This document shows positions 794 through 2,595 of a DNA stretch of 27,183 nt, piece by piece (the first letter of the stretch is position 1; each line of letters begins with the position of its first letter). The stretch is from positions 1 to 27,183 of the IMG/VR virus record IMGVR_UViG_3300033076_001413; one strand, 5' to 3'. The notes under the pieces were generated by a model, which was given only the letters and a program-made list of their open reading frames with translations, had not been told where the DNA came from and ran no database searches. A program made the position numbers and the translations under genes. Source of the DNA: a virus. Taxonomy: Duplodnaviria; Caudoviricetes.

Positions 794-972
794 GGCTGTG
801 GCGCGTAGAATTTCAGACGGGGTTTGTGCAATTCGAAAGCGTAATTGCCGACGAAGCATTCGCCCGCCGCTGGGCTTTGAAATCCAAAGGCGCACCGAGC
901 CACGAGCGGATCACAAAAGTCACGAGCGTCGAAGCGCCGCCGAACGACAAGCTGAGAGATGCCGCCACATGA
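739..972 (+). CDS. Cassette 3 gene: hypothetical protein (77 aa)
   Basis: ATG 739 in the attC loop right after TAA 735-737; stop forms an ATGA overlap with the next gene inside the next attC. Confidence 0.65.
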   Translation: MSTTKKAASRVGSGELVRRLWRVEFQTGFVQFESVIADEAFARRWALKSKGAPSHERITKVTSVEAPPNDKLRDAAT

Positions 973-1030
973 ACGCTCCGAATAACGCGCAAGACGCGAT
1001 GGCGGCATTCTCTCCAGCGACTGGTTCGGG
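939..1030 (-). repeat. attC: attC site (92 bp)
   Basis: - strand: R'' CCCGAAC, CAGTC, L'' GCTGGAGA, GAATGCCGCC ... GGCGGCATC, L' TCTCAGC, TTGTC, R' GTTCGGC; extrahelical G and A. Confidence 0.92.
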
Positions 1031-1622
1031 GACGGTCGTAAACAAATTTCGCGTTGATGATGCAAGGGTAGCATGTCCGCTTTTCCAAGCGGAACACGGC
1101 GGTTCGACTCCGACCTCAACGCTCCAATTCCGAATCGTGGAAATCGAGATGCGACGGGCAGCGCAACTGAATCGGCAGTGGCATAGCGTGCTGCCGAAAA
1201 CCTACCTCGCAAACCTCAACGGCAACATCTGCAAGGTCGCGTATGCGGCAGAGTTCGAGGGCGTGGCATACGCGGTGGCAATCTGGACGACTCCAATCGC
1301 GGCAAACCGCATGGCCGATGGGTGGAATGCGCTCGAACTCCGTCGGCTGGCAATCGCTGACGATGCTCCAAAGAACACGGCAAGCCGGATGCTGGCCGTG
1401 ATGACTCGACTGATAAAAGCCAAGTGGCCGCAAATCAATCGGCTTGTCAGCTACCAGGCGGAGAAACACCATGCGGGAACAATCTACAAGGCCGCCGGCT
1501 GGACGAATGCAGCGACTTCGGATGCTAAGACGTGGCATCCTGGCCGGCTGCGTGCGGCACAACAAACCGACTCCGCAAAGGTGCGCTGGGAATACACCCT
1601 GCGCGAGTCCCCGAACAAGTGA
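969..1622 (+). CDS. Cassette 4 gene: Mom-like (XF1762-type, GNAT-fold) DNA adenine hypermodification protein; alternative starts GTG 1137 / ATG 1149
   Basis: Motifs LNRQWH, ELRRLAI.DDAPKN.ASR, LVSY, H.GTIYKAAGW and K.RW are typical of Mom-family proteins. Confidence 0.8.
   Translation: MNAPNNAQDAMAAFSPATGSGTVVNKFRVDDARVACPLFQAEHGGSTPTSTLQFRIVEIEMRRAAQLNRQWHSVLPKTYLANLNGNICKVAYAAEFEGVAYAVAIWTTPIAANRMADGWNALELRRLAIADDAPKNTASRMLAVMTRLIKAKWPQINRLVSYQAEKHHAGTIYKAAGWTNAATSDAKTWHPGRLRAAQQTDSAKVRWEYTLRESPNK
1051..1126 (+). tRNA. Non-canonical tRNA-Gly-like element (8-nt anticodon loop, bulged T-stem, encoded CCA)
   Basis: Acceptor GCGTTGA/TCAACGC, D-stem ATGC/GCAT, anticodon stem TCCGC/GCGGA with loop TTTTCCAA, T-arm GGCGG-TTCGACT-CCG(A)CC, discriminator T + CCA. 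Confidence 0.8.
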
Positions 1623-1644: not shown

Positions 1645-2595
1645 ATGAAACAAAGCCAAGCGATTGATAAGTTCCGTGATTACATGCGGTTGAAACATTT
1701 GGCGCTGTCCACGGAGCAGAGCTATCTGGCGTGGCTGGCGCGGTATATGCGCTTTCTGGCAGGGGAGGCGGTGGAGGGCATGACGGGAGAGCAGAAGGTG
1801 GAGGCGTTTCTGTCGCACTTGGCGCGGCAGGATGTTTCGGCGTCGACGCAGAATCAGGCGTTTAATGCGCTGGTGATGTTTTATCGGGAGATCGTGGGGC
1901 AACCGTTGGCGCGGATTGATGCGTTGCGGGCCAACAAGCCGGTGACGTTGCGCGAGTCGCCAAGCCGGGAAGAGGTGCGGGCATTGCTGGCCAACGTCAA
2001 GGATGTGCATGGGTATCCGACGCGGTTGATCACTCATCTGATTTACGGGTGCGGGCTGCGGGTCACGGAACCATGCAATTTGCGGGTCAAGGATGTGGAG
2101 TTGCAGAATCAACGGCTCGTCATTCGCGGAGCCAAGGGGGGCAAGGATCGCGTGGTGCCGTTGCCGTGCTCGTTGCACGCCGGTCTGCGGGATGCGTTGG
2201 AGGCGGCAAAGGTGGTGTGGAAACAGGACGTGAAGGACGGTTTGCCGCTGCAATTGCCGGGACTGTTGGCCAAGAAGTATCCGCAAAGCCGGTTCGCGTG
2301 GAAATGGGCGTGGGTGTTCCCTCAAAAGTCGGCGTGTGAACATCCGCGAACGGGTGAGTTGGTGCGGTATCGGCTGCACGAAGCCAACGTGCAATTGGCT
2401 ATTCGGAGGGCGAGCGGCGGGAACATCAAGCCGCACGAGTTGCGACACGCCTACGCGACGCATTGCTTGAATCAGGGCACGAATCCGCGCGCTATCCAGC
2501 AGGCGATGGGGCACAAGTCTTTGGAAACGACGATGGGGTATCTACACGCGGAGGCGATGAGCGTCCGGAGTCCGTTGGAGGTAGTGAACGTATGA
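1645..2595 (+). CDS. intI: Integron integrase (tyrosine recombinase)
   Basis: N-terminal STQNQAFNAL, YGCGLRVTE, KGGKDR, integron-specific insertion LPGLLAKKYP...WAWVFP, HELRH, GHKSLETTMGY. Confidence 0.95.
   Translation: MKQSQAIDKFRDYMRLKHLALSTEQSYLAWLARYMRFLAGEAVEGMTGEQKVEAFLSHLARQDVSASTQNQAFNALVMFYREIVGQPLARIDALRANKPVTLRESPSREEVRALLANVKDVHGYPTRLITHLIYGCGLRVTEPCNLRVKDVELQNQRLVIRGAKGGKDRVVPLPCSLHAGLRDALEAAKVVWKQDVKDGLPLQLPGLLAKKYPQSRFAWKWAWVFPQKSACEHPRTGELVRYRLHEANVQLAIRRASGGNIKPHELRHAYATHCLNQGTNPRAIQQAMGHKSLETTMGYLHAEAMSVRSPLEVVNV

Follow-up and report, generated by a model that had tools for sequence, protein, structure and literature searches.

Many Phage Mom Genes Carry a Distorted Glycine-tRNA Mimic in or Directly behind Their Reading Frames

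Introduction

Can a phage gene for a DNA-modifying enzyme hold, within its own codons, an RNA that would supply that enzyme with glycine? The question is raised by a 27,183-nt stretch of viral DNA (Caudoviricetes; IMG/VR record IMGVR_UViG_3300033076_001413), referred to in what follows as the window, which also encodes a terminase, a capsid protein and a helicase. A preliminary description had noticed a tRNA-Gly-like cloverleaf in the 5' end of a Mom-like gene of the window and had proposed that it is either a chargeable glycyl donor that evades EF-Tu and the ribosome or a cis-regulatory tRNA mimic.

According to PMC13219725, Mom of phage Mu takes glycine from Gly-tRNA(Gly), accepting all three isoacceptors and rejecting Gly-tRNA(Ala), and forms N6-carbamoylmethyl-adenine, so that the dependence of Mom on Gly-tRNA is in print for the Mu enzyme. 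The Discussion of that article states that Mu Mom probably reads the acceptor end; host tRNA-Gly is treated as scavenged, and a possible cost to translation is mentioned.

Results and Discussion

The gene that carries the element lies at positions 969..1622 of the + strand and encodes 217 amino acids from the ATG at 969, which overlaps the stop codon of an ORF at 718-972; a second in-frame ATG is found at 999. That the gene is Mom-like, as first proposed, is borne out by a Pfam Mom (PF25680) score of 51.5 bits against a cut-off of 27.1, by a match of the gene product to phrog_1384 (E 1e-19) and by a structure model of the core (pLDDT 93.9) for which Mu Mom, PDB 8BV8, occupies Foldseek ranks 1 and 2 (top match E 6.6e-8, TM 0.76). 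The GNAT fold is thus common to the two enzymes, as are the equivalents of Mu R111, S124 and Y159, whereas those of D149 and R151 are absent from the window's enzyme (the numbering is offset by 9 residues); D and Y are invariant across the HY-type Mom subfamilies. The window's subfamily has WHS in place of HY and a shorter C-terminal part; Mu uses host tRNAs and has no element near mom. Judged from its sequence the enzyme is a Mom family member with a divergent active site, and since the D149 and R151 equivalents are absent its Mom chemistry is putative. The model is of low confidence over the first 20 element-coded residues and ordered from residue 21, with the first predicted strand at 28-32, starting right behind the CCA of the element, so that a start at 1149 would cut the fold. 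No sigma-70 promoter was detected near the Mom gene of the window.

The element itself comprises 76 nt (1051..1126, + strand) and is also translated in the Mom frame, which had been described as open there, giving the in-frame peptide RVDDARVACPLFQAEHGGSTPTSTLQ. It is recognized by ARAGORN, by Rfam and by comparison with relatives. The parts listed in the preliminary description are for the most part in place. The 7-bp acceptor, GCGTTGA/TCAACGC, has its 5' strand at 1051..1057 and its partner at 1116-1122, with G1-C72, C2-G71 and G3-C70 supported by an alignment of 97 elements; the D arm (1060..1074) has a 4-bp stem and a 7-nt loop, 99.6% paired among relatives with 3/4 pairs compensatory; the T arm (1098..1115) has a 5-bp stem, the TTCGACT loop and a bulged A at 1113, A being found there in 97/97 elements; and the U73 discriminator with encoded CCA occupies 1123..1126 (TCCA in 72/97). 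The bulge falls between pairs 50:64 and 51:63 in standard numbering, a register set by covariation. The anticodon-like arm (1076..1093) had been described as 5 bp with an 8-nt loop, and here the description needs correction: because pair 31:38 covaries (UA 42, CG 8, UG 8, unpaired 1; n=59) the arm is a 6-bp stem with a 6-nt loop, NUUCCA, whose invariant CC lies at 1085-1086. The same covariation rules out an 8-nt quadruplet-suppressor loop. A second class of elements has a 6-bp anticodon stem and a 5-nt loop.

ARAGORN, which had been suggested as a check, calls a tRNA of unassigned type, the sole tRNA in the window, and the Rfam tRNA model RF00005 gives 31.2 bits (gathering score 29; E 0.0063). 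The folding energy is modest, -26.9 kcal/mol (z -2.0), with 9/200 shuffles equally good, and with so weak a folding signal the case against chance rests on relatives.

In order to assemble these relatives independently of the element, 188 DNA loci were fetched by an alignment-based scan with patterns drawn solely from the catalytic core. After removal of weak or edge-cut matches there remained 125 distinct anchored stretches, including the window, and 10 further loci that were unanchored. The 76-nt fold was fitted by 101 of the 125 and not by 24; a covariance model then recovered full elements in 9 of those 24 and in 2/9 unanchored loci given to it, so that 112/135 distinct loci have the element and 23/135 are without an intact one. 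A protein search gives a similar picture: among 119 relatives (the best 120 of 1077 matches, the window's own protein left out) the T-arm peptide is found near the N-terminus in 113, and the residue encoded by nt 3-5 tracks that encoded by nt 69-71, as pair 4:69 demands (A/A 67, G/P 28, V/T 11, E/S 2, other 2).

Covariation of the stems among Mom-like homologues had been named beforehand as a check, and it is found in all four. In the 59 sequences of the window's class 98.8% of cells are paired and 15/22 pairs are compensatory, a figure inflated for the acceptor and T stems since the rows were selected on the pairing of those two helices; the D and anticodon stems, which served only to assign class, are still 99.6% and 96.9% paired. 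The paired fraction was reached by 0/500 shuffles, and registers slid along the sequence attain at most 50.7%. Across the 97-element alignment acceptor pairs 2 and 3 are kept in 97/97 and pair 1 in 96/97, while pairs 4 and 5 covary. Several covarying pairs have both partners at third codon positions (5:68, 95/97; 50:62, 97/97; 11:23, 59/59; 32:38, 36/38), and synonymous sites are fixed well beyond what the codon usage of the same genes predicts: C2 is observed in 97/97 against 47.1 expected, C35 in 97/97 against 33.0, G71 in 97/97 against 24.3 and C74 in 85/97 against 19.6. The bacterial GlyRS identity elements read initially from one sequence are in this way near-invariant in relatives, fixed even at synonymous sites, with both C35 and C36 in 97/97. 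Some tolerance exists elsewhere, A73 being found in 13/97 elements and the encoded CCA missing in 12/97; those with A73 (L002, L014, L020, L026, L041 and others) encode the peptide SAHQ or STHQ, most belong to class R, and they are possibly matched to a different host synthetase. On this comparative evidence we consider that the cloverleaf is under selection as RNA. Direct RNA data amount to one 162-nt contig from one run (depth 2.9; the run held 10% of query words), covering L209:800-953 alone, which cannot show ends or strand and is too weak to count.

The same stretch is read as protein. Among 177 distinct 76-nt elements taken with 60 nt upstream (length variants, six differing by 3 nt and three by 1 nt, were excluded from this count) the Mom frame is interrupted by a stop in none, as against 161 and 156 in the other two frames. 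An in-frame ATG lies at most 8 codons upstream in 129/177 (5 and 32 in the other frames) and any start codon upstream in 159/177; a stop is met first in 9, where an ATG or GTG is found inside the element. Since the Mom frame is stop-free and starts just upstream, the stretch can be read both as RNA and as peptide. In 45/173 sequences there is no start codon between the CCA and the WHS/HY motif. In two of the 1-nt variants (L040, L066) the D arm contains an in-frame stop, downstream of which lies a candidate start codon. The window's nearest ATGs, 999 and 969, are farther off than in most relatives and its leader is common to four of them.

Both of these candidate start codons lie inside a hairpin directly upstream of the element (935..1035; z -4.05, 0/200 shuffles; repeats I2 and I21), which we take to be attC-like. 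A site at the gene end, 1607..1620, is complementary to 1020-1033 (repeat I5, 93% over 14 nt), as the two ends of an integron-type cassette would be, and an integron-type (IntI-type) integrase adjoins at 1645..2595 on the + strand (TIGR02249, 270.8 bits against a cut-off of 265). All three features of an integron cassette, IntI-type integrase, attC-like hairpin and complementary ends, are therefore present in the window, and the Mom gene looks like an integron-type cassette. Further complementary ends are found at 544-556/698-710 and 787-796/936-945, so that the region, with its integrase, its attC-like hairpin and three small genes whose ends are complementary, resembles a phage-borne integron-like array in which the Mom cassette adjoins the integrase. 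The integrase is local context and not part of the conserved element, as a homologue is found near only 1 other locus among 189 sequences.

A DNA pattern for the element was used in order to establish how closely it is tied to Mom, and yielded 119 viral loci, 117 of which were re-read. The element runs in frame into a Mom core (E<1e-5) in 97/117. The remaining 20 comprise 18 truncated at the locus edge, one that Pfam identifies as Mom and one with an early stop. The 145 complete cores form 8 clusters, seven of which are only 21-26% identical to the window's core, while the element is 64-74% identical. In nine pairs of loci 74-76/76 nt of the element are common and the catalytic cores are at most 35% identical, the break coming right after the CCA; L209 869-944 and L241 869-944, L228 and L261, and L214 and L232 thus combine identical or near-identical elements with cores 24-35% identical, and leaders are also common to some of these pairs. 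The evidence is read as domain swapping behind a constant RNA module.

A second scan, using the bulged arm and 3' end alone and excluding the main 5' class, gave 121 loci with 105 distinct elements. The acceptor is 7/7 paired in 99/105, an optimistic number given that the 5' end was chosen as the best-pairing GCG; CC is found in the hairpin loop of 101/105, and 60/105 are no longer than 72 nt, with the D arm reduced or missing. Where at least 650 nt of upstream sequence was available, 58/65 bulged-arm elements have a Mom gene in the locus, and the placement is no longer that of the window: 39 lie inside the 3' end of the ORF, 14 enclose its stop, 3 are behind the ORF and 2 are in the 5' end. 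The Pfam Mom cut-off was passed by 57/57 distinct ORFs. As controls, unbulged tRNA-Gly-type ends are near Mom in 2/68 cases, both of them short forms, and ends with an extra base other than A in 19/59. The two short forms (L469, L513) are unbulged tRNA-Gly-like RNAs of 68-69 nt adjoining Mom, and may represent a second way to distort the RNA.

A cultured phage provides an example of a non-coding form. In Psychrobacter phage Y8A (OQ059336) two non-coding copies, 68 and 69 nt long (L309 2465-2532 and 2537-2605), come after the Mom gene; they are unannotated tandem mimics between Mom and the small terminase, each with the bulge, a TTCCC loop and a TCCA end and with the D arm nearly absent. As these copies are non-coding yet bulged, the T-stem bulge needs no coding excuse. 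A ParB-domain gene precedes Mom in this phage. In blastn searches of the elements against cultured phages the matches were to Y8A and P8625 only, the rest being short T-arm stretches; a match near Mom in Melnitz-2 is an unbulged tRNA without a Gly acceptor and was rejected. There was no match to plasmids by blastn, and the bulged pattern occurs in 1/301 bacterial genomes of one phylum, the one that had supplied a locus. Other arrangements were seen as well. In L321 (record G304) two tandem Mom genes follow a bulged element at a distance of 1.7 kb; elsewhere the gene ahead of a bulged element encodes a C5 methylase (L396), a glycoside-hydrolase-19 protein (L338), NinG (L345) or, with Mom farther upstream, a glycosyltransferase (L328).

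The association is not universal. Twenty element-less rows of the window's subfamily retain the ELRR and HxGxxY motifs, and in a quick tree the fold-less loci are scattered, requiring 11 changes of which only 2 are forced by strong branches; this suggests that the element was lost repeatedly, and in some lineages it is, by the same comparison, dispensable. Neither this nor the varying position nor the D-armless forms had been noticed in the preliminary description. Fold-less loci (L012, L024, L035, L069, L075, L140 and others) retain a PLF...PxSPxQ-like peptide upstream of the core, a hint that in those lineages a peptide derived from the RNA has been fixed at the protein level. No element was found in phage Mu 34485-36717, and there was likewise none in nine other cultured viruses at distances up to 600 nt from Mom. 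Prevalence in the HY-type subfamilies was taken from 13 cultured viruses and from the peptide footprint; it was seen in at least 13 of the 150 best HY-type representatives, and since a non-coding copy would leave none the true number may be higher. Conversely, 7 bulged elements have no Mom nearby: for 2 of them a Mom gene turns up farther along the contig, and the other 5 stand in records, one being 91% complete, that lack a Pfam-detectable Mom. Verrucomicrobia phage P8625 (NC_029047, complete) has the element (L678 1503-1578) in a 64-aa ORF after a ParB-methylase fusion and no Pfam Mom in its complete genome, so that its copy would be a relic or would serve a partner enzyme not yet recognised. 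In Microbacterium phage MenE an unbulged tRNA-Gly(CCC) with a G7-A66 mismatch (L318 1251-1325, minus strand) is convergent with Mom.

The distortions of the RNA can be compared with what is published on its presumed partners. PMC9908026 and PMC7826273 give G1-C72, C2-G71, U73, C35 and C36 as the bases read by GlyRS, and U73 also guards against DTD (PMC6097841). EF-Tu affinity is set by pairs 49:65, 50:64 and 51:63 (PMC3239215), and it is among these three that the bulge falls. The tight pair G51-C63 is found in 3/97 elements vs 61/94 ordinary phage tRNA-Gly, and TG at T-loop positions 54-55 in 33/97 vs 2/94 controls. The EF-Tu pair tables of PMC3239215, which do not cover bulges, predict a shift of +0.16 vs -0.42 kcal/mol, a pair effect of only ∼0.6. 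The anticodon loop is 6 nt in the window's class and 5 nt in class R and most 3' forms, and the base before CC is variable. As stated from these sequences, the GlyRS identity set appears to be kept exactly while the EF-Tu-affinity region is disturbed. Since Mu Mom, as described in PMC13219725, accepts all three isoacceptors, the fixed CC points to the synthetase.

What comparison among relatives establishes, at the level of sequence, is a fold with its T-stem bulge and conserved GlyRS identity set, a frame free of stops, and an association with Mom that holds in three positions. The mechanism that we consider probable, though well short of certain, is that the RNA is excised, charged by host GlyRS, avoids EF-Tu and so provides a private glycyl donor for Mom. 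Charging requires a free 3' end, and excision from the Mom transcript, likely by host tRNA-processing nucleases, is inferred for this reason. Host glycyl-tRNA synthetase is predicted to charge the freed RNA, which would then bind EF-Tu poorly and be passed over by ribosomes, and in that case would act as a dedicated glycyl donor to Mom for adenine modification. Where the element is embedded one transcript could give either RNA or protein, which would favour donor over enzyme.

Between the two branches of the original proposal we prefer the donor to a mimic acting only in cis from the 5' end, since in other loci the RNA follows the Mom gene or occupies its 3' end. For embedded elements the two roles, donor and cis control, are compatible. 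A broader version of cis action, in which tRNA-processing enzymes, GlyRS or Mom bind or cut the cloverleaf to limit Mom expression and the released RNA is a by-product, seems unlikely. It would account for the location of the element inside or touching the Mom ORF at most loci, cleavage would presumably destroy the mRNA of the 5' class and, where the element is embedded at the 3' end, strip the mRNA of its stop codon, and Mu mom, which has no element, has an adjoining dedicated translational regulator, Com; yet the element can lie at either end of the ORF or wholly outside it, as the tandem copies of Y8A do, and a cleavage signal has no need of C35/C36 (97/97; CC in 101/105 loops). It is distinctly unlikely that the released RNA acts uncharged or as a bound partner, whether it scaffolds Mom, inhibits Mom or, as a decoy, diverts host enzymes that attack tRNA-Gly. 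Mu Mom's probable reading of the acceptor end (PMC13219725), the tolerance of A73 and of a missing CCA and the copies that persist in records without detectable Mom are all in keeping with such a role, but the complete synthetase identity set is retained and the Mom adjacency in 58/65 is not expected of a general decoy.

Very unlikely, in our estimate, is an ordinary supplementary or frameshift-suppressor tRNA-Gly that refills a pool drained by Mom: the element does score above the Rfam tRNA threshold, a 7-nt loop can be drawn for class R and MenE has an unbulged tRNA-Gly(CCC) adjoining Mom, but such a tRNA would not be expected to have an invariant bulge, short loops, a base that varies ahead of CC and a D arm that is often lost, and true phage tRNA-Gly is rarely near Mom (2/68). 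The nine pairs with a break right after the CCA and the adjoining integron-type integrase of the window might be taken as signs of a DNA-level attachment or recombination site for swapping Mom domains; this we hold to be highly improbable, as the swapping is explicable by homology alone and the G-U pairs and compensatory changes of the cloverleaf point to selection at the RNA level. A phage attachment site in a tRNA gene was likewise rejected, the whole cloverleaf being present and an integrase homologue near only 2/189 sequences, one of them the window. Finally, there is next to no chance that a conserved peptide produces the fold incidentally or that a tRNA insertion survives here as a fossil. 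Fold-less loci do keep the PLF...PxSPxQ-like peptide and residues 21-30 are predicted by the model to be ordered, but unless the alignments are in error both versions are refuted by covariation and fixation at synonymous sites; moreover, the amino-acid pairs make sense only as base pair 4:69, and non-coding copies exist.

With respect to known RNAs, the element shares with canonical tRNA-Gly (RF00005, including phage copies) the cloverleaf, G1-C72, C2-G71, G3-C70, U73, CC and CCA and differs in the bulged T-stem, the 5-6 nt loop and the weaker 51:63 pair; its Rfam score is 31 bits vs up to 76 for host tRNAs. With neither an uninterrupted 5-bp T-stem nor a 7-nt anticodon loop it is, by these features of its sequence, not a canonical tRNA. 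Regulatory mimics in mRNA leaders, such as the thrS operator, and tmRNA likewise place a tRNA-like fold in an mRNA, but they do so in an untranslated leader or with the tRNA and mRNA parts as distinct domains; here all 76 nt are codons and the element is movable to the 3' end. A closer parallel is the staphylococcal non-proteogenic tRNA-Gly (PMC7826273), which likewise has a 6-bp anticodon stem, a 5-nt loop and a TGC T-loop, keeps identity while translation features are lost and works with a tRNA-dependent GNAT partner (Fem), as would the Mom element with Mom. Those RNAs are free-standing chromosomal tRNA genes that serve Fem transferases in building cell-wall bridges; the Mom element, in contrast, is phage-borne, has the T-stem bulge and often no D arm, lies in or beside the ORF of the enzyme and has a putative DNA target. 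By analogy, the element would work like the staphylococcal type without being a member of it.

No Mom-linked tRNA mimic is described in the literature searched, largely open-access papers and including passages of a 2023 preprint and of PMC7824862, and no such element was found in the available text of PMC13219725. A dedicated non-ribosomal tRNA has a precedent in staphylococci; within that literature and Rfam, the RNA family and its architecture do not. The architecture, as it appears in these sequences, is that of a whole tRNA-like gene under selection inside the ORF of the enzyme it would serve and movable to either end. The chances appear to us even that this is a new class of phage RNA, a ribosome-orthogonal glycine carrier for Mom written in the codons of the enzyme, so that each transcript ends up as donor or as enzyme. 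At ∼69 nt it would be a minimal aminoacyl carrier of natural origin, barred from EF-Tu by a bulge and a stripped D arm, and also a constant module for Mom domain swaps.

Conclusions

Our comparison indicates that many phages encode a distorted glycine-tRNA mimic in or right behind a Mom gene. A conserved N-terminal 'GGSxPTSxLQ' motif of Mom-like proteins is explained as the footprint of this RNA, and gene callers and tRNA scanners each mis-annotate such loci. The question can be put to a direct test, with Y8A as a cultured system and the coupled GlyRS/Mom assay already published. If the donor role is true, the element would be a naturally occurring antideterminant for EF-Tu as well as a minimal substrate of GlyRS, with uses in orthogonal aminoacyl transfer. 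For the phages themselves, the finding suggests that many dodge the translation cost of Mom modification via a glycine carrier of their own.
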